The translations under genes were made by a program, and so were the position numbers. Of a DNA stretch of 64,000 nucleotides, positions 1,126 through 52,600 are shown piece after piece. Positions within the stretch are counted from its first letter, which is position 1, and every line of letters begins with the position of its first letter. Origin of the DNA: Myxococcales bacterium (lineage in GTDB: Bacteria > Myxococcota_A > Polyangia > Polyangiales > Ga0077539); NCBI GenBank assembly GCA_016792845.1, contig JAEUKH010000018.1, forward strand, positions 138,984 to 202,983, given 5' to 3'. The notes below the pieces were generated by a model. The model made no database searches and had not been told where the DNA came from. It saw only the letters and a list, made by a program, of their open reading frames with translations.

Positions 1126-1176
1126 TGTTCACAACGTCAACATTGAATGTTGACAGCGTTTACATCGGCCGAGATT

Positions 1177-6386: not shown

Positions 6387-7271
6387 GTGAGCTTCTCAAC
6401 GCCCCTCATTTCGGTCGAAGCGTTGTCTACCCTGGCCGCCTCACCGCGGCTCCGGTTGATCGACCTCCGGTGGCATCTCAACGGCCCGAGCGGCGCCGAT
6501 TTGTACGCCCGCGGCCACCTCGACGGGGCCGTCTTTGTCGACCTCGAAGCCGCCCTCACGGCCCCCGTGGGCCCCGGGCGACACCCCATCGCCAGCCGCG
6601 CCCAGTTTGAGCGGGCCATGCGCGCGGCGGGCGTCTCGAACGACACGACGGTGGTGGTCTACGACGACGCCGGCGGCAGCGTCGCGTCTCGGCTCTGGTG
6701 GCTCTTGCGATACTACGGGCACACCGAGGTCGCGGTGCTCGACGGCGGCCTCGCCCGCTACGAGGCCCTCGGCGGCGCGCTCAGCACCCGCGCCACGGCG
6801 CCCGAGCCCGGCAGCTTCGTGGCGAAGCCCGGGGCCATGCCCGTGGTCTCGGCCCTCACCGTCGAGGCTCGGGCCGCCGAGCCCGAGGGGGCGCTCCTCC
6901 TCGACGCCCGCGCGCCCGAGCGGTACCGCGGCGAGGTCGAACCCGTCGACGCCCGGGCGGGGCACATCCCCTCGGCCCGCAACGCCTTCTGGCAGTGGCA
7001 CCTCGACGGCGCGGTGTTTCGCAGCCGAGAGGCCCTCGCGGCCCACTTCGCCGCCCTCGGGGTCACCCCCTCGCGCGAGGTGATCGCCTACTGCGGCAGC
7101 GGCGTCACCGCCTCACAGCTCATCTTGGCCCTCACCTACGCAATGCCCTCCCTCACCGTCTCGCTCTACGAAGGCAGCTGGAGCGACTGGTGCCGCGACC
7201 CCTCGCGCCCCATCGCCACCGGCGAGGCCCCGGGGCAGCTCTGGCCATCAAGCCCATCGCCCCGCTGTTGA
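6387..7271 (+). CDS. Tandem-rhodanese sulfurtransferase (thiosulfate/3-mercaptopyruvate type)
   Basis: Two rhodanese modules. Active-site loop CGSGVTAS near the C-terminus. Confidence 0.75.
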   Translation: MSFSTPLISVEALSTLAASPRLRLIDLRWHLNGPSGADLYARGHLDGAVFVDLEAALTAPVGPGRHPIASRAQFERAMRAAGVSNDTTVVVYDDAGGSVASRLWWLLRYYGHTEVAVLDGGLARYEALGGALSTRATAPEPGSFVAKPGAMPVVSALTVEARAAEPEGALLLDARAPERYRGEVEPVDARAGHIPSARNAFWQWHLDGAVFRSREALAAHFAALGVTPSREVIAYCGSGVTASQLILALTYAMPSLTVSLYEGSWSDWCRDPSRPIATGEAPGQLWPSSPSPRC

Positions 7272-7555
7272 ACGGTGTTCAACACGCCCCTCGCATCGCC
7301 TTGTTGAACAGTGTTCAACACGCCCCCCATCGGCGCCACAACCACACTCGCAGCGCTTCGTTGAGCGGCGCTCAACACGATCACCGCGGAGAGGCGGCAC
7401 GCTGTTGAACAGCGCTCAACAGCGAGGCCCGATGACGCTTCGGCGCCCGCGGAGTGTGCGGCGGTCGCGCGACCGGCGGCCCTCACGGGTCGGGGGTCAC
7501 ACGCAGACGCTGTAGCGATTCTCTGGGGCGAGGAGGCTGTTGAACAGTGTTCAAC
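7267..7555. repeat. Array of five 17-bp palindromes GTTGAAC-N3-GTTCAAC in a convergent intergenic region
   Basis: Copies at about 7267, 7303, 7360 (GTTGAGCGGCGCTCAAC), 7404 and 7539. Spacing is irregular (34-126 bp). Confidence 0.85.
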
Positions 7556-8838: not shown

Positions 8839-10773
8839 TTGATGGTGACCGTCGCCGCCCGCCGCTCGCGCTTGCTCCTCGTTGGTGCCCTGCTCTTGGG
8901 GGCGTGTGAGACGCAGCCCACCCACGAGGTGTTGTCACTCACCGACCTCACGCCCCGGGCCCTTGAGGTCGGCGAGCGGGTGGTGCTCACCGGCGCGGGG
9001 CTGCCGCAAGCGCAAGACATCCACCGCATTCGGCTGCGCTTCAGCGGCACCGTCGCGCGCCCCGGCGCGGCCAGCTGCGGTCGCCCGGTGGTGCTCAACG
9101 TGGTCGACCCGCCCGACGAGGCGCAGCTCACCGACCACCTCACCGGGCAGAGCCGCGCGGCGACCTATGCCGAGAGCGCGCTCCACACGGTGCGCGTCGA
9201 CGGGCCCAATCGGCTTGAATTCGTGCTCACCGCGGCGATGCTCGACACCCTCTCGCGGTGCCCCGAGGCGAGCGAGGCGCAGAGCGACGCCCCCACCCAC
9301 GCGACGCTGAGCCTCAGCGGGGCGCGGGGCGGCGTGAGCCTCCAGATCGAGACCGCCCAGGGCACCGTGCTCTCGGCCGCCAGGGCGCTCCGCGGACCCA
9401 CCGTCGAGCTCATCCCCCATCGGGCCGCGCTGGCCGAGGAGCTCGCCGCGCGCACCACCGCCGAGCGCGCCCTCGACACCTTGGGCCTCCAGCTCGCAGC
9501 GGCGCACCCCACCGAAGGGGGGCTCCAGATCGAGCGCGTCAGACCCGGCTCTGCGGCCGACGAAGCGGGCCTCTCAGACGGCGACGTGATGGTGCGCCTC
9601 GATGGCGTGACCCTCCTCGGAGTCGGCGATTTTCTCCCCGCTCCGTCGCGCGAAGTCTCGGTGCTCACGGTGCGCCGCGGAGACGCCCTCGACGACCGCG
9701 CGATGCGGGTCTCGAGCCTCGCCCCGACGGCACCCGCCGACCTCGTCGCGACGGGCGTCTTGCTCCTCGTGGCGATGGCCTGGCTCCTCGTGGCCCGCGG
9801 CGGCGGCCCGGGCTCGGTGCGCTGGATCGTGCGTCGCCTCGGCAGCCCCGAGCGCGACCCCAGCACCCATCACAGCGCCCTCGACGACGCGCGCCGCGGC
9901 TGGCGTTGGAGCTGGCTCGTCGGCGACCTCCGGCGTCAGCTCTTGGGCCTCGCGGTGTTCGGCAGCACGCTGCTCTGCACGGTGCTCGGGCCCTTGTTCT
10001 TGGGGCGCGACCTCGACCTCGCGGCGGCCCACGGTTTTGTCGCTTTGGGCTCGCTGAGCCTCTCGGCCTTCTTGCTTCGTCAGCGGGGTCTCGCCCTCCA
10101 TCACACGGCCCGCGCACTCATCGACCGGCTCCCGAACGAGCTCCTGGCCCTGCTCCCGGTGGCGGTGGGCGTGATGGCCGCGGGCTCGCTGCACGTGCAA
10201 GACCTCGTCGACGCCCAGGGCGGCGCCCCGTGGCGCTTTACGGGCCTCGGCGCCCCCTGGACGGCCCTCCTCGTCGTCGGCTGGTGGGCCTCTCTGGTGC
10301 GTTCGACGGAGCCCGGCGTGGCCCTCGACCTCCGGGCCTGGGCGGGCACCGTCTCGATGCTCTGGGTGCGCGCGATGCTCGGCGTGGTGGTGTTTCTCGG
10401 CGCTTGGCGGCTCCCCGGCGTCGGGGCGATGACCCAAGACGCCCGCGCCTCGCTCAGCATGCTCGGGGCCCTGTGGCTGTCGCTCAAAGCCTGGGCCCTG
10501 GTGCTCTCGGCGCTCGCCGCCCGACGCGCCTTCGCCCGGGTGAGCGCCCCGCGCTTCAGCCGCTTCGTGCTCCGCGCGTGGCTGCCCATGTCGCTCGTCG
10601 CCGCGGCCCTCAGCGCCGCCCAGGTGCTCAGCACCCCCCGCCTCGGGAGCGTCACCCGCGACGTGCTCACCCGCTCGGCGAGTTGGGCCACCGTGGCCAC
10701 CCTGGCGATGGCCCTCGGGTGGATCACCTGGCGCCGCCTGCGCCCCCGCGCCACCTTCGGCTACGCCCCCTGA
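8839..10773 (+). CDS. PDZ domain-containing polytopic membrane protein
   Basis: N-terminal lipoprotein-like signal and a PDZ-like segment (GLQIERVRPGSAADEAGLSDGDVMVRLDGV), then at least 8 predicted TM helices. Confidence 0.5.
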   Translation: MMVTVAARRSRLLLVGALLLGACETQPTHEVLSLTDLTPRALEVGERVVLTGAGLPQAQDIHRIRLRFSGTVARPGAASCGRPVVLNVVDPPDEAQLTDHLTGQSRAATYAESALHTVRVDGPNRLEFVLTAAMLDTLSRCPEASEAQSDAPTHATLSLSGARGGVSLQIETAQGTVLSAARALRGPTVELIPHRAALAEELAARTTAERALDTLGLQLAAAHPTEGGLQIERVRPGSAADEAGLSDGDVMVRLDGVTLLGVGDFLPAPSREVSVLTVRRGDALDDRAMRVSSLAPTAPADLVATGVLLLVAMAWLLVARGGGPGSVRWIVRRLGSPERDPSTHHSALDDARRGWRWSWLVGDLRRQLLGLAVFGSTLLCTVLGPLFLGRDLDLAAAHGFVALGSLSLSAFLLRQRGLALHHTARALIDRLPNELLALLPVAVGVMAAGSLHVQDLVDAQGGAPWRFTGLGAPWTALLVVGWWASLVRSTEPGVALDLRAWAGTVSMLWVRAMLGVVVFLGAWRLPGVGAMTQDARASLSMLGALWLSLKAWALVLSALAARRAFARVSAPRFSRFVLRAWLPMSLVAAALSAAQVLSTPRLGSVTRDVLTRSASWATVATLAMALGWITWRRLRPRATFGYAP

Positions 10774-11003
10774 GTTGAACACTGTTCAACACGCGCCTGG
10801 CCGCGTCTTCGCGTCACCCTCGTCGCCCAGATGCGCGCCGTTCGAGGCGGCCTCGGCGCCGCAAGTTGAACACTGTTCAACACGCCCGCGCGCCGCGCTG
10901 ACGCCCCGCCGACGGCATCGCCGGACGCCTGCCCAGGCGCCGCACCGCGCCCCGAGGCCCGAACGATGAACGCTGTTCGGCGCCGTGTTGAACAGTGATC
11001 AAC
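10774..11003. repeat. Array of three or four GTTGAAC-N3-GTTCAAC palindromes in a convergent intergenic region
   Basis: Copies at about 10774, 10865 and 10987 (GTTGAACAGTGATCAAC), plus a degenerate copy near 10965 (GATGAACGCTGTTCGG). Confidence 0.85.
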
Positions 11004-11018: not shown

Positions 11019-12101
11019 CTAGCCGAAGCGAGCCAGGACGAGCCCCGCCACGAGGCCGCCGAGGTGCGCCGCGGCCGACGCGCGCTGCGCCGCCGCGAGG
11101 TCGAGCCCCGCCTGGAGCAACACGAGCCCCGTAAGGAGCAGCGCCCCGACCCGAAGCTCCGGGGTCTTTCGCAGGCGCGGCTCGCCGACGAGGGTCGCGA
11201 TCGAGGCCCCGACCAGGCCCATCGCGGCGCCGCTCGCGCCCACCACGAGAGTCACGCCGGGGCGCGAGGCCCAACTCGCCACGCCGGCCAAGACGCCGCT
11301 CATCACCCAAAGCGAGAGCGTGCCCCGGGGGCCGCGGCGCGACTCGACGAAGCGACCGAAGATCAGCGTCACGAGCACGTTCATGCTGAGGTGCAGCGCG
11401 TTGGCGTGGAGGGGCAGATAGCCCACCAGACGCACGAGGTCGCCCAGCCCCTCGGGAGGCACCCGCAAGGCGCCCCAGCGCAGGAGCCGTTCGGGGGTCG
11501 GCCCGCCGAGCAGGCGCTCGATGCCGTAGCCCGCCAGGAGCATGGTCGCGAGGGCGAAGGTCATGGGGCTCCGCGCCGACAAGACCGCGGGCGAGACCGT
11601 GACCCATGGTTGCAGCGAGAGGCTCGCGAGGAGCCGACGCGCCTCGACGCGCTTCTCGACCTGCGCGACGAGGCGATGCCACGCCGGGTCGCTCTGAACG
11701 ATGGGCGCCAGCGGCGAGGCGCGACGCCGTTCGAGCCGGTGACGCATGGCAGGCCCGAGGCCCGGCAAGGTCATCGCGAGGTCGAGCCGTCGCGCGGCCC
11801 GCTTCGCCCGATCGGCCCGTTGCAGCGCCACCGAACGCCAATACGCCGCGGCGCCGAGGGGAAGCTCAGCCCGCAGCTCGGCCACGAGGCTCGCCGTCGC
11901 GTCGACGAGGCCGAGGTGCGCCGCCACCACGAGGAGCTCAGCGGCCGTCGCGCGAGAGAGCGGCCAGCGCGCCCCGCCGAGGCGGTGCGTCAGCAGCGCC
12001 CCGGGGCCCTGACGGCGCACACGCAGGTCGAGCGCCGCGGCCTCTGAAGCGAGGCCGCCGAGGGTGGGATCGAGTTCGGGTGAGGCGAGCGACCCTGACA
12101 T
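11019..12101 (-). CDS. Rhomboid-family intramembrane serine protease
   Basis: GASGAAMGLVGA (GxSG) and the AHLGGLVAGL histidine helix at the C-terminus. N-terminal soluble domain. The start is uncertain; the ORF extends to 12221. Confidence 0.65.
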   Translation of the reverse strand: MSGSLASPELDPTLGGLASEAAALDLRVRRQGPGALLTHRLGGARWPLSRATAAELLVVAAHLGLVDATASLVAELRAELPLGAAAYWRSVALQRADRAKRAARRLDLAMTLPGLGPAMRHRLERRRASPLAPIVQSDPAWHRLVAQVEKRVEARRLLASLSLQPWVTVSPAVLSARSPMTFALATMLLAGYGIERLLGGPTPERLLRWGALRVPPEGLGDLVRLVGYLPLHANALHLSMNVLVTLIFGRFVESRRGPRGTLSLWVMSGVLAGVASWASRPGVTLVVGASGAAMGLVGASIATLVGEPRLRKTPELRVGALLLTGLVLLQAGLDLAAAQRASAAAHLGGLVAGLVLARFG

Positions 12102-19154: not shown

Positions 19155-20537
19155 ATGCGCAACCTCAAGAGCCTCGCCGTGATCGTCGCCGCCCTCGCCT
19201 CGTCTGCCATCGGGTGCGCCGCGCACCCTCCGCCTGCGCTCACGGTGGTGCAGAACCCGGTCGAGCTCTTGACCCTCGACGCCGCGACGGCCAACCGGTT
19301 CGTCGTGGCCGGGGCGCGCAGCGAGCTCGCGGCGCGCATTCGCGTCGCGGTGCCGAGCATCAGCAGCCTCCGGCGGCCGCCGATCAACCTCGCGCTGGTC
19401 GTCGACACCTCGGGCTCGATGGAGGGCCGCGCCATCGAAGACGCCCGCGTGGCGAGCCGCACCCTGCTCGAATCGCTGCACGACGGCGACCGCCTCTCGG
19501 TCATCACCTTCGACTCGCAGGGGCGCGTCTTGGTGCCCTCGACGGTGCTCAGCGCCGCGAGCCGGAGCACCATCGCCGAGCAGATCGCGCAGATCGAAGC
19601 CCGCGGCACCACGGCGATGGCCGAGGGCCTGCGCCTCGGGGTCGCTCAGGTGTTCGCGAACCACGACCCGGCGGGCATCAACCGCATCGTGCTGCTCGGC
19701 GACGGCGTGCCCAACGACGCCTCGGGGATCCTCGAAACGGCTCAGGCCGCGGGCGCCCGGGGGGTCGCCATCACGACCCTCGGGCTCGGTCTCGACTACG
19801 ACGAGACCCTGATGGGCAACGTGGCGCAGCGCTCGGGCGGGCACTTCCACTTCGTCGAAGACTCGTCGGCGGTGGCCGCGGTGTTTCGCGACGAGGTGCT
19901 CCGCATGGAGCGGGTGGTGGGCCGCAACGCCGTGGCGGTGCTCAACGCGGGCCCTGGGGTCGAGGTGCAGTCGGTGGTGGGGCTGAGCGCGACGCGCACC
20001 GACGAGGGCATCGTGGTGCCGCTCGGAGACGTCTCCGAGGGCAGCACCCGCGACCTGGTCGTTCGCCTGAGCGTGCCCTCGCGGCGTAACGGGGCCTCGG
20101 TGGAGCTCCTCGACGTCACGGTGCGCTACGTCGACGCGTTGCAGGGCGGCGGGCAGCGCGAGCGGCGGGCCTTCGTCGGGGTGCGCGCCTCGTCGAATGA
20201 GGCCGAGCTGCGGGCGGGGCGCAACGAAGAGGTCGAGCGCACGGTGGCCGCCCAGCAGCTCGCGAGCAACACGCTCGAGGCCATTCGTGACGCCCGCAGC
20301 GGCAACCTCGCGGCGGCGCAGCAGCGCCTCGATCAGGCGATCGCTCAGGCCGAGCAGCAGGCGCGGGTTCGCAACGACGTGCGGCTGCAACGTCGGGTGG
20401 CCTCGCTGCGTGGCCTTCGCGGCGCGCTGCCGAGCGTCGCCCCGTCGACGCCTTCGGCCCCGGCCCCTGAGGCTGCGCCCGCCACGGCGGTGCGTGCCGC
20501 GCACGACGAGGCGATGAGCGAGCTCTCGGGTGACTGA
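19155..20537 (+). CDS. von Willebrand factor A domain lipoprotein
   Basis: MIDAS motif VVDTSGSMEG. Signal peptide with lipobox. Confidence 0.7.
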   Translation: MRNLKSLAVIVAALASSAIGCAAHPPPALTVVQNPVELLTLDAATANRFVVAGARSELAARIRVAVPSISSLRRPPINLALVVDTSGSMEGRAIEDARVASRTLLESLHDGDRLSVITFDSQGRVLVPSTVLSAASRSTIAEQIAQIEARGTTAMAEGLRLGVAQVFANHDPAGINRIVLLGDGVPNDASGILETAQAAGARGVAITTLGLGLDYDETLMGNVAQRSGGHFHFVEDSSAVAAVFRDEVLRMERVVGRNAVAVLNAGPGVEVQSVVGLSATRTDEGIVVPLGDVSEGSTRDLVVRLSVPSRRNGASVELLDVTVRYVDALQGGGQRERRAFVGVRASSNEAELRAGRNEEVERTVAAQQLASNTLEAIRDARSGNLAAAQQRLDQAIAQAEQQARVRNDVRLQRRVASLRGLRGALPSVAPSTPSAPAPEAAPATAVRAAHDEAMSELSGD

Positions 20538-22289: not shown

Positions 22290-23234
22290 ATGAAAGCCCT
22301 CGAGCTCTCTGACCGCGAGCGCAGCCTCTGCCTCTCGGCGATGGCCACGCTCATGCGCCACGACGGCGCCGTACACCCGAAGGAGCGCGAGCTCTTCGAC
22401 GCCGTCTCTCACGCCCTCGGGCGCGCGACGCCCTTCGACGATGTTGACACTGTCAACATTGACACGATCGCGGCCGAGGTGACAGACCCCGAGAAGCGCG
22501 AGCGGCTCGTGCAGCTCTTGATCGTGACGGCGCTATTTGACGGCGACGTCACGGCGGGCGAGCTGGCGTTTTTGCGGGCGTGGTCAGAGGCCCTCTCGGT
22601 CGACGAGCCGCGCATGGGCACGCTCTCACGTTGGGCCCACGGGCTGTCGTCGCTCACGCAGTTTGACCTCGGGTTTCGCTCGGCGATGCTCGACCGGATC
22701 CGGCGAGACACCTGGGCCCGCGACGGCGTCTCGGGGCTGCGTCACCTTTACGGCAGCCTCTTCGGGATGGGGGCCGAAGACCCGGGCCTCGCGGCGCGCT
22801 TTGACGCGCTCGGGGCGCTGCCCGAGGGCACCTTGGGGCGGGTCTACCACGAGCATTTGCGGGCCCGCGGGTTCAGCTTTCCGGGCGAGCGCGGGGTCAC
22901 GATGCCGAAGCAGCTGGTGGCCCACGATCTCTCGCATGTGTTGGGCGGGTATGACACCGACGCGGGGGGCGAGACCGAGGTGATCGCCTTTGTGGCGGGC
23001 TTCATCTCGACCGACCCGTTCTGGTACGTGTTCGCGATTTTGATGCACATGCACCTCGGCACGCGGGTGTTCGGCCTCGACCCCACGGCCCACCTCGCCG
23101 CCGACGCCCACAAGATGGTGGCGGCCCTGCGCCGCGGGATGCGCGTCAATCGCGACCTCTACCACGACTGGGACTACTGGCCCGCCTTCGCCGAGCCCCT
23201 CGAGGCCGTGAGGGCTTCGCTCAACATCGTGTAG
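22290..23234 (+). CDS. Hypothetical protein with a TerB-like N-terminal domain
   Basis: Helical N-terminus resembling the TerB / DjlA-N fold. It carries a GTTGAC-type palindrome at 22441 in frame (DVDTVNID). Confidence 0.35.
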   Translation: MKALELSDRERSLCLSAMATLMRHDGAVHPKERELFDAVSHALGRATPFDDVDTVNIDTIAAEVTDPEKRERLVQLLIVTALFDGDVTAGELAFLRAWSEALSVDEPRMGTLSRWAHGLSSLTQFDLGFRSAMLDRIRRDTWARDGVSGLRHLYGSLFGMGAEDPGLAARFDALGALPEGTLGRVYHEHLRARGFSFPGERGVTMPKQLVAHDLSHVLGGYDTDAGGETEVIAFVAGFISTDPFWYVFAILMHMHLGTRVFGLDPTAHLAADAHKMVAALRRGMRVNRDLYHDWDYWPAFAEPLEAVRASLNIV

Positions 23235-23248
23235 CGTCGGCGTCGACG

Positions 23249-24454
23249 ATGCTGAGCTACGAAGAAGCCCTCGCGCGCATGGTCGCCGAGGCCCACCCGG
23301 TCGACCGCGAGCGCGTGCCCTTTGCGAGCATCGCGGGGCGCGTGCTGGCGCACCCGCTGACGGCCCGCGAAGACCTCCCGCCCTTCGATTACAGCGCGAT
23401 GGACGGCTACGCCCTCGATCACCGCGCGGCCCTCGCCCCTGGCGCCGCGCTGCCGGTGGCGGGGGCGCGTCGGGCGGGTGACCCTCCGGGAGAGGCCCTC
23501 GCGCGAGGCCAGAGCGTACGCATCTTCACCGGCGCCCCGTTGCCGCCCGGAGCCGACGCGGTGGTGATGCAAGAAGAGGCGCTCCGGGAGGGTGACACGG
23601 TTCGCTTCACCCGCGCGGTTCACGCCGGGCAGCACGTTCGTCGCCGCGGTGAAGACCTCGTCGCGGGCGCGCAGGCCTTGCCCGCTGGGGCGCGGGTGTC
23701 GCCCTGGCAGGTGGCCCTCGGCGCGAGCTGCGACCGGGCCGAGGTCGAGGTGTTTCGGCACGTCAGGGTGGGCCTCGTCCTCACGGGCGATGAGCTGCGC
23801 GCGCCCGGCTCGGAGCCCCGCCCCGGGAGCGTGGTGAACTCGATCGGCCCCGCGCTCGAAGCCTGGCTCTGCGCCCTCGACGCGCGGGTCAGCGTCAACG
23901 GCCCCTATGTTGACGATGTGAACATCATCGCCGACGCGATCGGCGCGGCGGTCGCGCAGAACGACCTGGTGATCACCGTCGGCGGCGTCTCGGTGGGCGA
24001 TCACGACCCGGTGAAGCCTGCCTTGGTCGCCGCGGGGGTCGCCCTCGATTTCTGGAAGGTGGCCATCAAGCCCGGCAAGCCGCTCTGTTACGGCCGCGCG
24101 TCGGGCGCGAAGCGGGTCTTGGGGCTGCCGGGCAACCCGGCCTCGGCGCTCTTGACCTTCGGCCTCTTCGGCGTTCCGGTGTTGCGGGCCATGGCGGGGT
24201 TGTCGAGGCCCGAGACGCCGACCGCGCGCGCGCGGCTGGCCGGCACCTTTCGTCGGAGCCCCGGGCGCACAGAGTTTGTGCGTGTGCGCACACGCGAAGA
24301 CGGGCGCGTCGAGGTGCTGTCGAACCAATCTTCAGGCGCGGCGACGAGCTTCGCGTGGGGCGACGCGGTGATGGTGGTCGCGCTCGAGACCGCGGTGATC
24401 GAAGACGGCGCTGAGGTGACGGTGATGCCGCTCGACGCCTGGCGCCGCGGTTAG
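23249..24454 (+). CDS. moeA: Molybdopterin molybdenumtransferase MoeA
   Basis: Typical MoeA N-terminus (LSYEEALARM...), GGVSVGDHD motif, 401 aa. Confidence 0.85.
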   Translation: MLSYEEALARMVAEAHPVDRERVPFASIAGRVLAHPLTAREDLPPFDYSAMDGYALDHRAALAPGAALPVAGARRAGDPPGEALARGQSVRIFTGAPLPPGADAVVMQEEALREGDTVRFTRAVHAGQHVRRRGEDLVAGAQALPAGARVSPWQVALGASCDRAEVEVFRHVRVGLVLTGDELRAPGSEPRPGSVVNSIGPALEAWLCALDARVSVNGPYVDDVNIIADAIGAAVAQNDLVITVGGVSVGDHDPVKPALVAAGVALDFWKVAIKPGKPLCYGRASGAKRVLGLPGNPASALLTFGLFGVPVLRAMAGLSRPETPTARARLAGTFRRSPGRTEFVRVRTREDGRVEVLSNQSSGAATSFAWGDAVMVVALETAVIEDGAEVTVMPLDAWRRG

Positions 24455-34441: not shown

Positions 34442-35809
34442 ATGGAAGTTGAATGCGTTTCTTGTTCAACGCGCGCGCCGCAGGGCACGAAGCGTTGCCC
34501 CAAGTGCTTGAGGACTCGACTCTTGCCAGTGCCCGAAGCCCCCGCTCGGGGGGGCGAAAAGGGGCTCGCTCGACCCCTGCGCCTTGGGGTGCTCTTTGTG
34601 AGCCTCGGGCTCGGCGCGGGCGGGGCCGTCTGGCTCTCAAAATACAGAAAATCAAGCGACAATCGGGGTGTCGTCGCAGCCCCTGTGAGCGCGGCGCAGC
34701 TCGGCCTTGGAGATTCGTTGAGCCCCGAAGCGGCCGCTCTCACGCGGGCGGCCTCGACACCATCGGCGCGGCTCCGGGTGCTGGGCGAGCGGCTTCAGGC
34801 GCGACGGCGCGCGCGGTGGGTGTCTGGGGGTGATGGGGTGCCTCCGCCCCGCAGCCCGGCTCAGGTGTGGGAGGCCTTGGCGCGCCCCGAGACCGCGGTG
34901 ACGGAGCTCGAAGTGGCGCGTCTCGCGGCGGCGCTCTTGCGCGGGTGCGGCGACAGCGCCGAGGTCGCGCTCCGCGAGCGCCCGCGGCGACGTGAACACA
35001 GCCGTAGCGACGTGGCGGCCCTCGGCAGCTGGCTGGTGCGTTCGGGCGACCAGCTCCTCGACCTCGGGAGCATGATGGTGCTCGGCGCCAGCGCGGTGCC
35101 GCACACGGTGTTGAACAGTGTTCAACTCGCGGCGGCGCTCGACGCGGCAGCGGCGATCGAGGTCTCGACGGCGGCCGAGGGTCGGGCCGCGGCTTTAGGC
35201 CGGGCCGAGTCGGCGGTGAACGGTTGGCGCGACGGCTGGCTCCCGCTGGCTGCGCGGGCCACGGTTTGGGTCAACGTGGGGGCGAGCAGCGGGCTCGACC
35301 ACGCCGCCCGCGACCTCTCGGCGGCGATCGCGCTTTCAGACGACGCGGGCCTCCACCTCGCACGGGCGCGGGTGCTCCTGGGGCAGCGTCGCCTCGTCGA
35401 GGTCGCCTTCGAGACGCAGCGCGCGTTGCAGATGGCGCCGGGCTTCACCGAGGCCGCGATGGCGTCGATGCTCTTACATCGGGTCTACGCTCAGCTCGAC
35501 GGCGGCGCGCCTTCGGGGTGTGAGGCGCTCCATCTCGCGCACCAGCCCACGGCCGACCTCGCCTCGGTGCTCTGCGCCGAGGGCCAGTCTGAGGCCTCCC
35601 GGGCGCAGGCCGCGACGCAGCTCGTGGCGCGCTCGACAGACCCGTTGGTGTTGGCCTACGCGGGGCGGGCGCTCGGCCCTTCGGCGGCCCCGACGCTGCG
35701 GCAAAAGACGACCCTCGCGGCCGCGCGGCGAGAGCTCGTGGGCTGGCTCGAAGCGGCCGGTGAGAGCGCGCTGTTGGCGGCCCTGGTGCCCCAAGACGGT
35801 GGCCTGTGA
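34442..35809 (+). CDS. Zinc-ribbon plus TM hypothetical protein
   Basis: N-terminal C-x2-C-x10-C-x2-C, one TM, and a large helical domain. An in-frame palindrome at 35109 encodes LNSVQ. Confidence 0.45.
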   Translation: MEVECVSCSTRAPQGTKRCPKCLRTRLLPVPEAPARGGEKGLARPLRLGVLFVSLGLGAGGAVWLSKYRKSSDNRGVVAAPVSAAQLGLGDSLSPEAAALTRAASTPSARLRVLGERLQARRRARWVSGGDGVPPPRSPAQVWEALARPETAVTELEVARLAAALLRGCGDSAEVALRERPRRREHSRSDVAALGSWLVRSGDQLLDLGSMMVLGASAVPHTVLNSVQLAAALDAAAAIEVSTAAEGRAAALGRAESAVNGWRDGWLPLAARATVWVNVGASSGLDHAARDLSAAIALSDDAGLHLARARVLLGQRRLVEVAFETQRALQMAPGFTEAAMASMLLHRVYAQLDGGAPSGCEALHLAHQPTADLASVLCAEGQSEASRAQAATQLVARSTDPLVLAYAGRALGPSAAPTLRQKTTLAAARRELVGWLEAAGESALLAALVPQDGGL

Positions 35810-36210: not shown

Positions 36211-37380
36211 TCAGGGCTCGCGCTGCACGAACAGCGACCACACCAGCGCGTCTTGGGTGTCTGTGGTGAAGACCGTGGGGCCCTCGCTCGGGCAGAGCCT
36301 GAGCCCGGCGACGTTCTCGTGCATGGGCACCTCGGTCTCGCCCCCAGAGGCCCGATCGTAGCGGGCCAGGCGCGCCCTGAGACCGACCGCGTGACGCACA
36401 AACCCCAAGCGCACGCAGCCGCGCCCGAGCTGCCGCGGGTCGACCACCGCGAGCACCCGCGAGAACGCGCGGTCGCCCGTCTGCACCACCGCGTCGTGCA
36501 CCGGCGGGAGCGTCTGCCCTCGCGACGCCTGCTGCTCGACGATCGAGAACTCCAACGGGAGGCCCGTCGTAAACCACGCGCCCGGCACCACCTCGGGCTC
36601 GACTCGCGGGTGAACCGGCTCGTCGTCGCGCTGTTGAACACTGTTCAACAGGGCGCGGTAAGTGACCGCGGTCGAAGGCACGAGCCGCGCAGCCCCGGGC
36701 CGGAGAGGCAGCGCGAGCCCCCCCACCGAGGGCCCCTCAAGGCTCGCCGCGCGGTCGAGCGCAGCCCCTTCGCCGAGGCCCACAAGCCCCTCGGGCGAGA
36801 AGGTGCCGCGGTTGAGCGCCGCAACACCGCCGACCTCGGCGCTCGGACCGCGGAGCACCGTCACGATCGCCGTGCCGCCGCGCACCGGCGGGGGCAGCAT
36901 CGGCGAGAGGTTGCGGGTCTCGAGCACCATCACGAGCTCGGCCGGCGCGTGGGTGCACCACTGGAGCTGCCCCGTGACGCCCATGGGTTCGCGGGCCACC
37001 ACCAAGGCAGGAGGCATCACGCTCACACGCTCGGCGCCCTCGGCGCGGTGTTGCAGCCCGAGGCGCTCGATGCGGTGATACCCGTGAACCGAGACCACCA
37101 CGGCCGCGCAGGTCTCGGCCCCGAGGCTCAGGGTGTACGACGCGTGACCCCGCGCGCCCGCGTCGGCTTCGAGCACCGGGAGCGTCACCTCGACGGGCTC
37201 GCGCATCCCCAAAGCCCGGGCCACCGCCACCTCGGTGTTGTGGACCCGCCGCGCGAGCGCCTCGGCCACCGGCGGCGCGTTTTCGGGAGGGTGCCGCGCC
37301 CGCGTCGCCGTCGCGTACATCAGCGCCACGATGGCCGAAAAGAACGCGCTGAGCACCCACAACACCGCCCGCAGAGACAT
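36211..37380 (-). CDS. Membrane-anchored hypothetical protein
   Basis: N-terminal TM. An in-frame palindrome at 36633 encodes LLNSVQQ. Confidence 0.4.
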   Translation of the reverse strand: MSLRAVLWVLSAFFSAIVALMYATATRARHPPENAPPVAEALARRVHNTEVAVARALGMREPVEVTLPVLEADAGARGHASYTLSLGAETCAAVVVSVHGYHRIERLGLQHRAEGAERVSVMPPALVVAREPMGVTGQLQWCTHAPAELVMVLETRNLSPMLPPPVRGGTAIVTVLRGPSAEVGGVAALNRGTFSPEGLVGLGEGAALDRAASLEGPSVGGLALPLRPGAARLVPSTAVTYRALLNSVQQRDDEPVHPRVEPEVVPGAWFTTGLPLEFSIVEQQASRGQTLPPVHDAVVQTGDRAFSRVLAVVDPRQLGRGCVRLGFVRHAVGLRARLARYDRASGGETEVPMHENVAGLRLCPSEGPTVFTTDTQDALVWSLFVQREP

Positions 37381-37522: not shown

Positions 37523-38758
37523 ATGCGAGCGCGCGCTACGGCTTTGATGACTCTCTCGACGGCCCTCTGGGTCGCCTCGTCGCCCGCAGCGGCTCAGCTC
37601 ACGGGCGGGCGTATCGGCGGCTCCAACTGGGGCGCCGCGCGGCCCTCGCGCACCGTCCAGGCGAGGCCCTCGGTGATGCCGTCGTTCGGTGCGCCGACGC
37701 CGAGGCCGGCCCCCGCCCCCGCGCCGACGGTGCAGCTGCCGGGGCTCCCGGCGGTGGCTCCGAACCCCGCCGCGATGCCGGGGATCGCCGTCGTCACGCC
37801 GCGGGTCGAGGTGCCAGCGGCGCCGCTCCCTCGCCTCGCGGTGAGCGCGTATGTCGCCCCGCCTCCGCACCCGGGGTATGTGCTCTACGCTCCCGGGGGT
37901 CGCACCCTTGAGCCCGACGAGGCGCAAGCGACGCACCCCCTCTGGCCGATGCACGACACCTACGGCCCGCTGAACCTCCTGGGCGGCGCGGTGGTCTTTG
38001 TGGGTCTCTTCGGCGCGCTCGGGGTCGGCGCCTGGGTGCTCACCCGGGCTCAGGGCGCAGCGCCGTCGCCCTCGCCGCCGTCCATTCCCCACGCTCCTGC
38101 GGGGCTCCCGGTGTCGCTCGGCCGGGTCTCGCTCGCGTTCGACGCCTCGCTCCGCGCGCACCTCCAGGCTGAGCTCGCGCGCTTCGCCGCGCAGGCGTCG
38201 TCGTCGTCACCTGAGGCCCTCGAGCGCACGACGCGGCAGGCCATCGACCTCCTCGGCAGCGCCCTCGGGGCGGCGCGGGCCGCCGCGGTGGCGAGCGCGC
38301 AGAGCCGCGTCGACGAGGCCGAGCGGCGCTTCACCGGGCTCGCCGATTCGCTGCGGCAGCGGTACACCGTCGAGAGCATCACCGAGGCCCGACGGGTGGT
38401 GATGCCGGGCCTCTCGCCCCTCGCCGACGAGGGTCAAGGCTTCGTGGTGGTGTCGCTCCTCGTCGCTGTTGAAACCCCGGATCTTGAAGCCCCCGCAGAG
38501 TTGAACACTGTTCAACTTGGGGCGTGGTTGCGCGCGCTGCGACCGCGGGCCGGGGGGCTCCTCGCGACGGAGCTCATCTGGTCACCGGCCGACCCTGGCG
38601 ATCTCATGTCATCGGCCGAGATGCTGCACCTCTACCCCGAGCTTCGCCCGCTCGAAGGGGCGACGCTCGGGCGCGTGGTGTGCGGGCACTGCCGGGCGGT
38701 GTTCGCCGCCGAGTTGGGGCGCTGTCAGCGTTGCGGCGCGGCGCCCGCCCAAGCCTGA
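37523..38758 (+). CDS. DUF1517-like exported protein with a C-terminal zinc ribbon
   Basis: Signal peptide then GGRIGGSNWG. C-terminal C-x2-C-x12-C-x2-C. An in-frame palindrome at 38500 encodes ELNTVQL. Confidence 0.4.
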   Translation: MRARATALMTLSTALWVASSPAAAQLTGGRIGGSNWGAARPSRTVQARPSVMPSFGAPTPRPAPAPAPTVQLPGLPAVAPNPAAMPGIAVVTPRVEVPAAPLPRLAVSAYVAPPPHPGYVLYAPGGRTLEPDEAQATHPLWPMHDTYGPLNLLGGAVVFVGLFGALGVGAWVLTRAQGAAPSPSPPSIPHAPAGLPVSLGRVSLAFDASLRAHLQAELARFAAQASSSSPEALERTTRQAIDLLGSALGAARAAAVASAQSRVDEAERRFTGLADSLRQRYTVESITEARRVVMPGLSPLADEGQGFVVVSLLVAVETPDLEAPAELNTVQLGAWLRALRPRAGGLLATELIWSPADPGDLMSSAEMLHLYPELRPLEGATLGRVVCGHCRAVFAAELGRCQRCGAAPAQA

Positions 38759-45998: not shown

Positions 45999-47831
45999 AT
46001 GAAGCGTCGGTCAATTGCCGCCACCGTGCGGACAGGATCAGTGTACGCTGTTGCGCTCGCGACAGCTCTCGGGGCCCGTTCGGGTCTCGCCCAACCCATC
46101 ACCCCGACGGCGACGCAGACGAGCCCTGCGACCCCCGCGCAGACGGGCACCGACCCGGGCACGACCTCGGGCGCCACGACGCCCGCGGGCGGCTCGAACA
46201 GCGCCCAGGGCTTCGCGCCTCCGAACCTCGGGCAGACGGCCCCGCAAGACCCCGGCCCGCAGCCGCAGGCGGGCGCTCCGGCGGTTCAGCCTGTGCGTAT
46301 GGAGGCCCCGGTGGCCCGCACGGCGCCGGCGACGTCGGCCCGCCCGTCGACGCCCCACGATTTCATCGACACCCGCATCACCTGGACGTTCGGTGACGAC
46401 GACATCTTGACCTCGACGGGTCAGCGGGTGCCCGTCTCGCCGCTCCCGCGGATCGCCGACCGACAGCAGTACCAGCTCTTCTTCGACGCGCTGAACTCGC
46501 GCTTCGCGGGCCGTGAGAACCTCACGCACCTCGCGATGTACGCGCGGGCTCCGGGCTTCATCGACCGGCTGACCACCGAGGCGGGCTTGATCCTCCGTGT
46601 CGACCTCGGCCAGTTGACCACGGGCTCGGGCAACTTGAACCAGGCCTTCTACGACGCGGGCACGTTCTTGCGTGTGGCCTACGGGCTGAACCCTTCGCGG
46701 GCCTCGGACCAGGTGTCGCTGACCTTCTTCCCCTTCGACACTGACCGCTTTCGGCTCGGGTATCTTTGGGATCTCTCATGGGGCGGCAACGACGTCTTCC
46801 CGCGCCGCGTGGGCCCCGCCCCGGGCCTGAAGCTTCAGCTCGACATCGGCGGGCTGCAGCTCTGGACGGGCTTCAAGACCGCCGGCATCGTGGTGCCCCT
46901 TGAGGTGGTCACGCAGTCGCGCGACATCGAGATCGTGCGCGTCGAAGAGACCCAGTATGCGGCCCTCGCGGGCGGCGCGTACCGCTTCAACGAGAACGTC
47001 AGGTTTGACGTCTCGGGCGGGTACTTTCAGCAGGGTCGCTTCGACTTCCCCGGGGTGCGCGGGCAACAGGTCTACCTCGTCGGCGGCAGCGCGCGGCTGG
47101 TGTTCTCGCAGGGCCTCAGCGCGGGCCAGTCGCTCGACATGCGGCTCTACCGCAACGACCCGACGACGCCCTTCCAGGCCTTCACCCCCGAGACCTACAC
47201 CCCCGGCCGCGTCTTGTGGAACGTGTCTCTCGAAGGCACCGCCATCGGTCAGAACCTGGCCGACATCAACTTCCCCGGGCGTACGGCGATCCAGACGGGC
47301 TTCGCGGGGGCGCTCCAAGCCCGCCTCAAGGCTGGCTACTTCGGCGCGGGCTTCACGGCCCTCTACCGCGACGTGCCCTTCCTCCTCCGCAACGTGCCGA
47401 GCTTCATCCCCTTCCAGACCTTGCCCACCGACGCGACGGTCGACCCTGAGTTCTTCCTCGCCGCGCAGGTCGACTACGCCTTCGTGCGTCAGCATCTCAT
47501 CCCGAGCTTGATCGTGGGCATGCAGCTCCCGGCCTCGTTCTCGAGCTCGGTGCGCGAGGGCTCCCTCGAATCCGAGCGCACGCTCGTGATTCGCCGCGCG
47601 GGCAACTTCTCGATCCTCCCGCCGGGCGAGGGCCGCGTACCGATCATCTCGGCCCGCGCCTCGATGCGCTGGGATCTCTCGACCGTCCTCGCGGGCATCT
47701 TCTGGGTGCAGTACGTGCTCGACCAGAACGCCACGCTCCTCCAGGTCGACTCGTCGGGTACGCGCCAGGTGCGTATCTTCCAAGCGGCCAATCAGCTCGG
47801 CTTCGGCATCACCGCGCAAGCCCGCTTCTGA
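45999..47831 (+). CDS. Outer-membrane beta-barrel protein
   Basis: Signal peptide, alternating amphipathic strands, and a C-terminal ...GFGITAQARF with terminal Phe. Confidence 0.5.
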   Translation: MKRRSIAATVRTGSVYAVALATALGARSGLAQPITPTATQTSPATPAQTGTDPGTTSGATTPAGGSNSAQGFAPPNLGQTAPQDPGPQPQAGAPAVQPVRMEAPVARTAPATSARPSTPHDFIDTRITWTFGDDDILTSTGQRVPVSPLPRIADRQQYQLFFDALNSRFAGRENLTHLAMYARAPGFIDRLTTEAGLILRVDLGQLTTGSGNLNQAFYDAGTFLRVAYGLNPSRASDQVSLTFFPFDTDRFRLGYLWDLSWGGNDVFPRRVGPAPGLKLQLDIGGLQLWTGFKTAGIVVPLEVVTQSRDIEIVRVEETQYAALAGGAYRFNENVRFDVSGGYFQQGRFDFPGVRGQQVYLVGGSARLVFSQGLSAGQSLDMRLYRNDPTTPFQAFTPETYTPGRVLWNVSLEGTAIGQNLADINFPGRTAIQTGFAGALQARLKAGYFGAGFTALYRDVPFLLRNVPSFIPFQTLPTDATVDPEFFLAAQVDYAFVRQHLIPSLIVGMQLPASFSSSVREGSLESERTLVIRRAGNFSILPPGEGRVPIISARASMRWDLSTVLAGIFWVQYVLDQNATLLQVDSSGTRQVRIFQAANQLGFGITAQARF

Positions 47832-48399
47832 GCGGCAGTTCAGCCAAACCCAGCGCCGCGTCTTCGAGCACCTCTGCCGCGTCGCCGACGCCCTCCATCG
47901 AGAGCGCCGCGACGCCGTGGCAGTGCGCCCAGAGCGCCATCGCGCGCCCCCGCACCTGCCCCGTCGAGGCCAGCCCATCAACCGCCGCGAGCGCCACCAC
48001 GAAGCGCTCGAACGCGTCGTGGGCCCGGTTCGGCGCACGCCCCGCGGGCGCGAACATCACCGCGTAGAGACCCCGATGGAGCCGCGCGAAGCCCACGTAC
48101 GCCGCGCACACCGCGACGAGCTGGGCGCGGGCCGCGACGGCCTCGGCGCGGGCGCCATCGAGCCGCTCGACGAGGCGCGCGAAGCCCTCCTCTCGCACCG
48201 CCCCGAGGAGCCCCTCACGGTCAATGAAGTGGTGGTACGCCGCGGCCGGAGCGACCCCCGCCTCGCGGCACACCGCGCGCAGCGACAGCGCCGCCGAGGG
48301 GCCCGATTCGAGCATCGCCAGGGCCGTGCCCATGAGGGTCGCGCGGAGGTCGCCGTGGTGTTGCCCCACCCTCCGCGGGGGGCGCTTTCGCTTCGCCAT
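47809..48399 (-). CDS. TetR/AcrR-family transcriptional regulator
   Basis: N-terminal HTH LRAVCREAGVAPAAAYHHF. 196 aa. Confidence 0.8.
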   Translation of the reverse strand: MAKRKRPPRRVGQHHGDLRATLMGTALAMLESGPSAALSLRAVCREAGVAPAAAYHHFIDREGLLGAVREEGFARLVERLDGARAEAVAARAQLVAVCAAYVGFARLHRGLYAVMFAPAGRAPNRAHDAFERFVVALAAVDGLASTGQVRGRAMALWAHCHGVAALSMEGVGDAAEVLEDAALGLAELPLRSGLAR

Positions 48400-48445: not shown

Positions 48446-48606
48446 GTTGAACAGCGTTCAACAGCGCCGAGGGCATCGAAGGGGCCGACCCGCGCTCAGC
48501 CCGGCCGAGGGTTGTCTGTCATGTTGAACAGCGTTCAACGGTGAACCCTGCGCGTGTTGAACAGTGTTCAACTTCGCCCCTGTGTGCGTGTTGAGCGGTG
48601 TTCAAC
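48446..48606. repeat. Array of four GTTGAAC-N3-GTTCAAC palindromes directly upstream of the TetR gene
   Basis: Copies at about 48446, 48523, 48556 and 48590 (GTTGAGCGGTGTTCAAC). Flanking GTGAACC motifs at about 48438 and 48541. Confidence 0.85.
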
Positions 48607-48898
48607 TGGGGCCTGGCCCGCGCTCCTGGCCCTGCGGGGGCGGCGGCATCCGGTCGGGCCTGCAGATCATGCGCTGGTCGCGGAAGGCCGCGCAGGTGCC
48701 CGAGATCGTGTGGGGGCCGAAGTTGACCGTGCAGGCGTCGCCGGTGTTGTGCCCCTGGCAGGCCGTAAACGCCTCGGCAGGGGGCTCAGGCGGTCGCCCG
48801 CCGGGGTTGCCCGGTTGGCCCTGCGGTTGGGCCGCGGCGAGGCCCGAGAGCGACAAGACGAGACCCAGTGAGCAGAGCGCGCGGCGCAGCGATTTCAT
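48602..48898 (-). CDS. Small secreted Cys-containing protein
   Basis: Signal peptide. 98 aa with 4 Cys. Pro/Gly-rich. Confidence 0.4.
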   Translation of the reverse strand: MKSLRRALCSLGLVLSLSGLAAAQPQGQPGNPGGRPPEPPAEAFTACQGHNTGDACTVNFGPHTISGTCAAFRDQRMICRPDRMPPPPQGQERGPGPS

Positions 48899-49423: not shown

Positions 49424-50731
49424 GTGAGTCTTCCGCTGGTTGTTGCGATCCAGAAGGCGCTCGGCGAGGCGCCCGGCCACCCTGCCCTCGTCGACGATGC
49501 GCTGCGGGCGGTGTTCAGCTTCCAGCTCCACGCGCCGCAGCTGACCGACGACCCGCGCGCGCGGGCCGCGCCGCACGCGGTGCTCCACGAGATGCTCACC
49601 CACCTCGCCGCGGGCCCGTGGCACGCGCGCTTTGTCGCCCTTGAGTTGAACAGTGTTCAACACGAGGCCCTGGTCATCGCGGGCTTCGCCGCCGCGTCGC
49701 TGCCCGAGGTCGAGTGGCTCATCAAGCAGAACTGGCGGGTCACCGAGGGGCTCCTCGCGGCCCGCGACGACGCCCCCGAAGCGCTGCTGGCGCTGGCCGA
49801 GCGGCTGCGCGGCAAGCCCGCCGAGAACCCCGCACTCTTGACGGCGCTGGGTCGCCTCGCGGTGATCGCCGACGGCCTCGAAGACGCGCTCACGTTGGCG
49901 AATTGTAGCCTCGCCGCGACGGCCGAGCGCGCCTTCACGGCCCTCGGCCCGACCCGCACCGCGCGGGTGGTCGAGCGGGTGCTCGCGCGCTTCGACCACA
50001 CGCCCGAGTTTCGCAGCCAGAGCCTCATCCCGATGCTCGAACGGGTCGGGCCCTGGCTCAACGCCCGCGCCCTCGACGCCGTGCTGACCCGGGCCGAGCT
50101 CCTCTCGAACACCTACCTCGCATGGGAAGATTGGGGCCAACGCCTCGGCCAGAACGCCGACACGCGCTTCGTCCTCGGGGCCGTCGCGGCCCGCATCGCC
50201 CAGCACGACGACCCGGGGCTCCGCGACGGGTGGCGCCGGGCCGCGCGCATGTTGCTCGACCGCGCGACGCACCGCGGGTTTGTGCCCTCGCCCGACGACG
50301 ACGTGTTCATCGACCCCGCGGGCGCGGCGCGCGGCAACGACGACGTGTGGATGGCCACCCGGAGGCTCCTCAACGCCATCGGCCCGACCCGCGCCGAGGC
50401 CGTGCTGACGGCAGCCTTCGCGGGCTACCGCGCCCCCTGCGAGGCCCTCCGCTTCGCCGTGAGCGGCATGTCGCCGGGCTACCTCTCTCGGGTCGCCGAG
50501 GCCATGGTGGCCGTGCGCGACGACCCTGCCTTCTCAGACCTCCTGGCCATCAGCGACCTCAAGCCCTTCGGCCCCGGGTTCGTCGACGCGCTCATCGAGG
50601 CCCTGCGCGACCTCCGTCCGCGCCGCGCCTTTGTGAAGCACCTTGAGCGCAACCTCAGCGTCGGCGACTACAACCGCCTCTCGATCTGGCTTGAGACGCG
50701 CCCGCCGCCCAAACGCCCCCGCGCGCCGTGA
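49424..50731 (+). CDS. Hypothetical helical-repeat protein
   Basis: 435-aa ORF with ordinary composition. An in-frame palindrome at 49644 encodes ELNSVQH. Confidence 0.4.
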   Translation: MSLPLVVAIQKALGEAPGHPALVDDALRAVFSFQLHAPQLTDDPRARAAPHAVLHEMLTHLAAGPWHARFVALELNSVQHEALVIAGFAAASLPEVEWLIKQNWRVTEGLLAARDDAPEALLALAERLRGKPAENPALLTALGRLAVIADGLEDALTLANCSLAATAERAFTALGPTRTARVVERVLARFDHTPEFRSQSLIPMLERVGPWLNARALDAVLTRAELLSNTYLAWEDWGQRLGQNADTRFVLGAVAARIAQHDDPGLRDGWRRAARMLLDRATHRGFVPSPDDDVFIDPAGAARGNDDVWMATRRLLNAIGPTRAEAVLTAAFAGYRAPCEALRFAVSGMSPGYLSRVAEAMVAVRDDPAFSDLLAISDLKPFGPGFVDALIEALRDLRPRRAFVKHLERNLSVGDYNRLSIWLETRPPPKRPRAP

Positions 50732-50794
50732 GCGCCCTGTTGAACAGTGTTCAACAGTGGGTGAAATTCGGGGGCGCAGCGGGTGCGGCGCGGG

Positions 50795-52600
<1,806 letters not shown>

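Follow-up and report, generated by a model that had tools for sequence, protein, structure and literature searches.

Why should a short, AT-rich palindrome recur, always in the same reading frame, inside genes without a common function in a bacterium whose DNA is rich in G+C? This question is raised by a stretch of 64,000 nucleotides (G+C ~70%) from the metagenome-assembled genome of an uncultured Myxococcales bacterium (contig JAEUKH010000018.1 of assembly GCA_016792845.1, positions 138,984 to 202,983), which we refer to as the window. A first reading of the letters, here called the original prediction, had pointed out GTTGAC-type palindromes in a TerB-like gene and in moeA, with similar copies in a matrixin-like gene and a HEAT-repeat gene. 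It had set them apart as a second motif family from palindromes that read LNSVQ when translated. We term the GTTGAC-type palindromes B-type boxes and the LNSVQ family A-type boxes. Our analysis indicates that the palindromes are very probably operator sequences of the TetR type and that each of the two families would be paired with a TetR paralogue of its own. The element itself is familiar, a TetR operator; what is unfamiliar is its use, in copies that are dense, intragenic and near the 3' ends of genes.

Results

Six B-type boxes stand out from the sequence background

The whole 64-kb window was searched with the pattern ATGTTGACNNTGTCAACAT, allowing up to three mismatches, and 100 dinucleotide-preserving shuffles served as control. 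The search returned 12 strand-matches, corresponding to six boxes of the form ATGTTGAC-N3-GTCAACAT (Table 1), compared to none in the 100 shuffles. As the window has a G+C content of about 70%, an AT-rich 19-mer is especially improbable there. A position weight matrix trained on 102 boxes that lie at TetR promoters in other genomes gave the six boxes scores of 26.3-40.5 bits, which fall within the range of the training boxes (5th percentile 25.2, median 36.7 bits), and gave the next best position in the window 5.7 bits. In a codon-usage model based on the window's own usage, the motif had a chance of ~8e-11 per codon position. The shuffles, the matrix scores and the codon model together rule out that the boxes originated by chance or as a by-product of codon use.

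The boxes thus form a second motif family, as had been proposed, and this family is related to the LNSVQ family. The sequence at 22441 is the perfect 19-bp palindrome that had been described. For the box at 23907, the single mismatch ascribed to it applies to the consensus; compared with its own reverse complement, the box has one mismatch in the 8-base arms and a second one in the centre. Both boxes lie in coding sequence and read V-D-x-V-N-I, and both further copies exist, the one at 57289 with the expected peptide and the one in the HEAT-repeat gene reading V-N-x-V-N-I instead. That the family sits in frame within genes is correct for four copies, all in one frame, but two of the six boxes are intergenic. 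They form a tandem pair, not listed in the original prediction, in a gap of 51 bp where the 3' ends of a lipoprotein gene (514-1125, +) and the gene of a methyltransferase (1177-1836, -) converge; the first box starts within the TGA stop of the former (1123-1125, +) and shares one base with it.

The B-type box adjoins a clade of TetR regulators in other genomes

A scan for the B-type pattern over genomes of 185,579 species revealed at least 112 loci in many phyla. Among the matches listed, 51 loci carry a tandem pair of boxes with starts 21-48 bp apart. Clustering of the neighbouring open reading frames at the listed loci yielded one dominant family, a TetR regulator with the domains TetR_N and TetR_C_33. 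By tblastn, a homologue of this regulator was located within 400 bp at 45 of the 51 paired and at 12 of the 61 single-box loci among these matches. The pair sits 0-70 bp upstream of the repressor's own gene, and at the listed paired loci the median distance from the end of the second box to the start of TetR is ~16 bp. Pairs upstream of genes of this clade occur in Acidobacteriota, Gemmatimonadota, Chloroflexota, Spirochaetota, Bacillota, Myxococcota and other phyla. Since the tandem pair adjoins a TetR gene at 45 of the 51 listed loci, it has the placement of the clade's own-promoter operator. Judged by this linkage, the B-type box is the autoregulatory operator of a widespread, uncharacterised TetR_N + TetR_C_33 ('WHG') clade.

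Literature searches on the motif, on PF13305 and on WHG TetR proteins brought up no relevant report other than the precedents SlmA and RefZ. The clade has no equivalog match in NCBIfam, and the nearest solved structure to the clade of the window's own TetR is PDB 3on2, of unknown function. A scan of viral sequences for the B-type box gave 10 single matches.

The B core was also found in four contigs of one Eubacteriales metagenome-assembled genome. They were ruled out as the same system, as the core is part of a longer, 27-bp repeat at contig ends. This palindromic repeat, CAG[GT]ATGTTGAC-AAA/TTT-GTCAACAT[AC]CTG, lies at or near the contig ends of L005, L037, L047 and L053 (Eubacteriales, CAWVLE01) and of L071 and L073 (Clostridia, JAFUAR01). 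It combines the B core with conserved flanks, has no TetR nearby and looks like a separate, REP-like repeat.

The identity of the neighbouring gene also bears on the idea that the boxes serve a ParA/ParB system as parS-like centromeres. This idea was prompted by the left end of the window, which starts within a gene for a ParA/Soj-like ATPase (3-548; AAA_31, CbiA); the gene that follows it is the lipoprotein gene 514-1125, which carries six tandem TPP[AT]DTGNV repeats, and not parB. Only ~600 bp separate the ATPase fragment from the tandem pair downstream of it, parS sites commonly occur in clusters and inside genes, and the core ACA-N-TGT appears to resemble the parS of Vibrio cholerae chromosome 2. 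However, the neighbour is TetR and not ParB at 45 of the 51 listed paired loci, Pfam scans detected no ParB domain in the window, the gene after the ParA-like one encodes a repeat lipoprotein, and in direct comparison the motif differs from the canonical parS, TGTTNCACGTGNAACA. A role as parS is therefore extremely improbable.

Box type follows the recognition helix of the adjacent TetR

The A-type family, GTTGAAC-N3-GTTCAAC, occurs in the window in 17 copies at up to two mismatches, 13 of them with perfect arms. Written as 19-mers, A is TGTTGAAC-N3-GTTCAACA and B is ATGTTGAC-N3-GTCAACAT, so that both have TGTTGA in common and A has an extra A in each half-site. The window has a single TetR-family gene, and the four A-type boxes in front of it (Table 1) are taken to be the regulator's own operators. 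The encoded protein is 30-49% identical to the TetRs that adjoin B-type pairs in other phyla, and its recognition helix has Pro and His where the B-box TetRs have Arg/His and Arg. Its closest homologues, P0122 and P0124, have A or A-like boxes at their own promoters. As the box type follows the recognition helix, the A and B families are, by this comparison, most likely read by two different TetR paralogues. The suggestion that one protein might bind both palindrome families is accordingly an unlikely one. Rather, the A-type boxes would be read by the window's TetR, and the paralogue for the B-type boxes would be encoded outside the window.

A separate clade of soil TetRs, with the helix EYSPAAIYSYF and a perfect A box upstream, appears to extend the association of the A box with Pro-type helices. 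In six soil metagenome contigs (L125, L132, L137, L156, L162, L174), the gene for such a TetR is preceded by a single perfect A box in the context TTAATAT-GTTGAACACTGTTCAAC-ACGCC. A metagenome scan for the A-type 19-mer yielded 55 mostly single, unrelated matches and no second lineage with dispersed boxes. One contig, L124 (Ga0123357_10124825; 43% G+C), contains fourteen A-like boxes in ~1 kb (847-1888), which may be a tandem array or satellite. In the window itself, a gene for a Cys-rich protein of 98 amino acids with a signal peptide (48602-48898, -) lies just upstream of the TetR operator array.

Table 1. Boxes in the window, and TetR regulators with their recognition helices and promoter boxes. 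Positions refer to the window unless a contig is named.
Feature	Position	Strand	Context	Characteristics
Tandem B-type pair	1125-1143 and 1147-1165		between convergent 3' ends	centres 22 bp apart; 30.8 and 26.3 bits
B-type box ATGTTGACACTGTCAACAT	22441-22459		inside TerB-like gene (22290-23234, +)	perfect 9+1+9 arms; 40.5 bits; DVDTVNI
B-type box ATGTTGACGATGTGAACAT	23907-23925		inside moeA (23249-24454, +)	degenerate half ATGTTCAC; 30.3 bits; YVDDVNI
B-type box ATGTTGACGGTGTCAACAT	57289-57307		inside matrixin-like gene (56754/56946-57818, +)	perfect arms; 39.0 bits; NVDGVNI
B-type box ATGTTGACACTGTTTACAT	58313-58331		inside HEAT-repeat gene (57802-59106, -)	degenerate half ATGTAAAC, two mismatches; 27.4 bits; DVNSVNI (minus strand)
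Five A-type boxes, array	7267-7555		gap between convergent rhodanese (+) and ManC (-) genes	
Three A-type boxes, array	10774-11003		gap between convergent genes 8839-10773 (+) and rhomboid 11019-12020 (-)	
A-type box	35110-35126		intragenic	reads LNSVQ
A-type box	36633-36649		intragenic	reads LNSVQ on minus strand
A-type box	38500-38516		inside DUF1517 gene	reads LNTVQ
Four A-type boxes	48446, 48523, 48556, 48590 (span 48446-48606)		between TetR start codon and upstream 98-aa gene	taken to be operators of the window TetR
A-type box	49645-49661		intragenic	reads LNSVQ
A-type box	50739-50755		63-bp gap between convergent genes 49424-50731 (+) and dnaK 50795-52600 (-)	
Window TetR-family gene	47809-48399	-	own promoter A-type, four boxes	TetR_N + TetR_C_33; helix GVAPAAAYHHF
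TetR P0122	L120, box at 2607		own promoter perfect A box	helix GVSPGAPYHHF
TetR P0124	L118, boxes at 9941 and 9984		own promoter two A-like boxes	helix GVAPAAPYHHF
Separate soil TetR clade			perfect A box upstream	helix EYSPAAIYSYF
38 B-box TetRs			own promoter B-type	R/H/Q at helix position 4 (38/38); Y-R-H-F (37/38)

Reading frame and origin of the intragenic boxes

In all four intragenic B-type boxes the centre of the palindrome falls on codon position 2, and the same frame is used by all eight intragenic copies of both types. One of the three possible frames through each palindrome contains TGA. With the codon usage of the window, the observed frame is ~30-fold likelier than the other open frame for B and 18- to 400-fold likelier for A. 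Codon usage and the stop codon hence account for the shared frame, which is the footprint of coding constraint and not a property of the element.

The original prediction had proposed an alignment of orthologues, in which VDxVNI conserved with non-palindromic codons would have spoken against it. The peptide was found neither in 119 MoeA homologues, which read P[FY][AV]RDDxxxT at the site of the box, nor in 34 homologues of the TerB-like protein, which have a variable linker there (...D[AS]L..[IV].P...), and neither alignment shows a gap at this site. An alignment of ~45 matrixin homologues, likewise without a gap at the box site, reads DG[PAV]N[AVI]N, so that D, G and N were already present, only the V...V.I positions are new, and the family motif foreshadows the peptide in part. 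A conserved peptide as the cause of the boxes is thus ruled out for MoeA and the TerB-like protein and holds in part for the matrixin family, with its previously conserved D, G and N. The missing length change and the lack of VDxVNI in orthologues point to an origin by substitution. The nearest relatives in these alignments are only ~50-55% identical at the protein level (55% for the nearest MoeA), which leaves room for old compensated indels behind the absence of gaps. As read from the alignments, the intragenic boxes are made by base substitution in tolerant, poorly conserved positions, sometimes on a pre-adapted peptide, and not by insertion. The word 'embedded', which had been used for them and hints at an inserted element, does not fit the unchanged length at the site in the three protein alignments.

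At shorter evolutionary distance, the contigs that represent this species in other samples match the window at 99.7-100% identity, and box 57289 is unchanged in strains of 99.7% identity. With strains this similar and the next relatives at ~50%, the turnover of single boxes is untraceable.

The boxes are dense and lie near convergent gene ends

Taken together, the window contains 23 operator-grade boxes in 64 kb, or one per 2.8 kb. Elsewhere they are restricted to the promoter of the TetR gene, as a single pair, and contig L118 (20.6 kb) also has them at the TetR promoter only. No A or B box was found in the syntenic relatives L115-L117 (14-21 kb each), in which the moa gene order is kept. By these comparisons the density is peculiar to the present lineage. 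Compared to the moaC-moaE-AI2E-mog-moeA-thiS-carD cluster of L115 and L116, the VWA gene (19155-20537) and the TerB-like gene (22290-23234) of the window are additions. In the ~0.7 kb to the right of the window that are covered by a contig of the same species, no further boxes were detected.

None of the B-type boxes in the window lies upstream of a cognate TetR; they are intragenic or between convergent 3' ends. Fifteen of the 23 boxes (13 of the 17 A-type copies) are intergenic, although only ~10% of the DNA is. Of the gene junctions in the window, 12 are convergent, 37 tandem and 11 divergent. Boxes occur in five gaps, four of them convergent and the fifth the TetR promoter, with no box in a divergent gap (hypergeometric P ~0.0045). 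When neighbouring boxes were collapsed into 13 loci, these lay on average 602 bp from the nearest convergent junction, nearer than random points (P = 5e-5, simulation), and they were not nearer than random points to divergent junctions. The B-type sites are paired, with distances of 22, 1466 and 1024 bp within the pairs (P ~0.0015). A segregation of A and B into alternating blocks was not significant (runs test, P = 0.15). Several stop codons fall within or next to A-type boxes: the stops of the rhodanese gene (7269-7271, in the first box of the array) and of the gene for the 98-amino-acid secreted protein (48602-48604) are part of the box (GT-TGA-AC), and that of gene 8839-10773 (10771-10773) directly abuts one. 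The matrixin and HEAT genes overlap at their 3' ends (57802-57818), and the two B-type boxes at 57289 and 58313 lie exactly symmetrically about the middle of this overlap, each 512 bp away from it.

This placement allows several readings of the boxes to be weighed. In the simplest, they would be ordinary operators of a classical regulon, with the repressor controlling the TerB-like, moeA, matrixin and HEAT genes, for example via internal promoters. Each box contains TTGACA, the -35 consensus of sigma-70, on both strands, and some TetR-family regulators, such as RutR, bind inside genes. In 43 oriented TetR promoters of other genomes, the -10 hexamer expected 16-18 bp after TTGACA had a mean of 2.6 matches, no better than the 3.0 at a control offset. 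However, boxes are absent from all 11 divergent gaps, the ones that bear promoters, four of the five gaps with boxes have no gene start for which they could serve as promoter region, the genes involved have no common function, and the syntenic relatives keep the moa cluster without any box. We therefore consider a classical regulon very unlikely.

The position at gene ends would also suit hairpins of RNA or single-stranded DNA that terminate transcription or stabilise the 3' ends of mRNAs; recognition of the duplex by a protein would then be irrelevant. Boxes do lie at the 3' ends of convergent genes, single ones fold at -7 to -13 kcal/mol, and the tandem pair 1125-1165 forms one 41-nt hairpin, with the two inner halves paired and likewise the two outer ones (-20 to -22 kcal/mol on either strand, z-scores -3 to -3.9). 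Pairing does not explain, however, why the operator consensus is kept at all 16 specified positions, beyond what the potential to pair demands. Each of the four degenerate B-type boxes keeps one perfect half and is changed on one arm only, without a compensating change. Moreover, eight copies lie in mid-gene (relative positions 0.17-0.80), and other genomes have the same sequence upstream of TetR genes. Rfam and tRNA scans of the window returned a tRNA-Val only and no match at the boxes. The more specific case of an intrinsic terminator is contradicted by the uncompensated changes together with AT-rich stems in a genome of 70% G+C and the lack of a U-tract after them. Hairpin function as such is, with these points, slightly less credible still than a classical regulon.

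More weight has to be given to the view that the boxes are a selfish or neutral short repeat of the REP, MITE or HIP1 kind, copied by insertion or short-patch gene conversion and surviving where it does least harm, in convergent gaps and in the single tolerable codon frame, so that the match to an operator would reflect origin and not function. The high share of boxes in intergenic DNA, mostly in convergent gaps, would agree with this, as would the arrays of three to five in unusually long gaps, the nearby pairs of B-type sites and the three genes with stop codons in or at boxes. Two degenerate halves also appear twice each, ATGTTCAC in the boxes at 1125 and 23907, ATGTAAAC in those at 1147 and 58313, and the density is like that of REP, DUS or HIP1 rather than that of regulator sites. 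Against copying speak the unchanged length at the three alignable intragenic sites (MoeA, TerB-like, matrixin) and the absence of any shared flank beyond the 19 bp and of target-site duplications among the six B and ten A copies compared. Pfam scans of all called genes of the window found no transposase or RAYT-like gene, and we know of no copying mechanism for a unit of 19 bp. The GTTTAC variant half is also found in genuine TetR promoters of other genomes, so its recurrence may merely reflect tolerated mismatches. On balance, a passive repeat is unlikely, though clearly less so than the regulon or the hairpins.

Discussion

Our findings suggest that the GTTGAC-type palindromes are probably best explained as operator-grade sites for a TetR repressor of the WHG clade, of which dispersed copies are reused away from promoters. 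The B-type boxes would be bound by a TetR-family repressor of the TetR_N + TetR_C_33 clade, a binding that we infer from the linkage in other genomes. Substitutions would have written the intragenic boxes into poorly conserved stretches, using the frame that is cheapest in codons. Among the candidate roles of the dispersed copies we favour, tentatively, that of extra-promoter platforms for protein binding near converging transcription units, where they might act as roadblock, insulator or marker of chromosome position. A bolder version, which we regard as rather doubtful, is that two TetR paralogues of the WHG type have been recruited as chromosome-bound factors. Each would then have hundreds to thousands of sites, ~1 per 3 kb, written by selection and concentrated at convergence, and these could serve as roadblocks, domain boundaries or a dense, SlmA-like positional code.

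Several observations weigh against this explanation. Pfam scans of the called genes revealed no TetR with a B-type helix (GVS[RH]xAxYRHF) in the 64-kb window, so that the cognate binder of the B-type boxes is hypothetical, and the TetR that is encoded there scores 19 bits with the NCBIfam model of SlmA, whose cut-off is 120. The density of the boxes is at least 30-fold above that of SlmA and RefZ sites and suits repeat-like proliferation as well as a marker. The placement statistics are post hoc, come from one window with 13 loci and are to be taken as leads. The long convergent gaps might owe their length to the arrays that accumulated in them. Finally, the comparison of strains at 99.7% identity is too shallow to reveal whether the boxes are under purifying selection.

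If the boxes are bound, they would represent a third independent case, after SlmA and RefZ and at far higher density, in which a TetR repressor is reused as a chromosome-wide factor, and a single genome would hold two paralogous proteins, each with its box. Amino-acid changes would have been the price of placing sites in essential genes, moeA among them, and the window would be a natural system for studying the invasion of coding sequence by binding sites. It would also offer a setting in which to study the role of DNA-bound proteins at converging transcription units in a high-G+C bacterium with few obvious intrinsic terminators. Should the bolder version hold, a repressor and its operator would have given rise to a new kind of nucleoid-organising system. 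As a passive repeat, the boxes would still be a repressor operator turned genomic repeat. In either case, an operator consensus and the helix positions that would determine specificity are defined for a large, uncharacterised TetR clade that spans many phyla.

How, then, do the boxes compare to known systems? Like Rickettsia palindromic elements, they place palindromic DNA in frame inside protein-coding genes. Those elements are insertions of 100-150 bp that add residues, whereas the unit in the window is 19 bp long and has added none in the MoeA, TerB-like and matrixin alignments. With REP/BIME and with HIP1 of cyanobacteria, the boxes share the short palindrome and the high density; REPs are enriched between convergent genes, as the arrays of the window lie in 3' gaps, and HIP1 also occurs inside genes. 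Unlike these repeats, the boxes equal the operator of a specific repressor, and the window shows no GTAG-type REP head, RAYT gene or insertion signature.

To our knowledge, SlmA and RefZ are the only established precedents for the use of TetR sites outside promoters, with dozens of sites per genome for SlmA and five for RefZ. Both are TetR-family proteins that bind dispersed chromosomal motifs (PMC6657595). The boxes of the window resemble SBS sites of SlmA in E. coli and RBM sites of RefZ in Bacillus in being near-palindromic and scattered away from the regulator's own promoter, with a TetR as the presumptive binder here. The proteins are not orthologues, as the SlmA score given above and a score of 19 bits for a B-type TetR with the RefZ model (cut-off 180) indicate, and the window differs in its density of ~1 per 3 kb and in the coexistence of two paralogous box types. 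With the operators of the WHG clade, finally, the B-type boxes have an identical 19-bp consensus, and the sister A-type box fronts the window's own TetR. What sets the window apart from these operators elsewhere is that all six B-type boxes lie off a TetR promoter, four in mid-gene and two between convergent 3' ends, and that the number of copies per kb is far higher.

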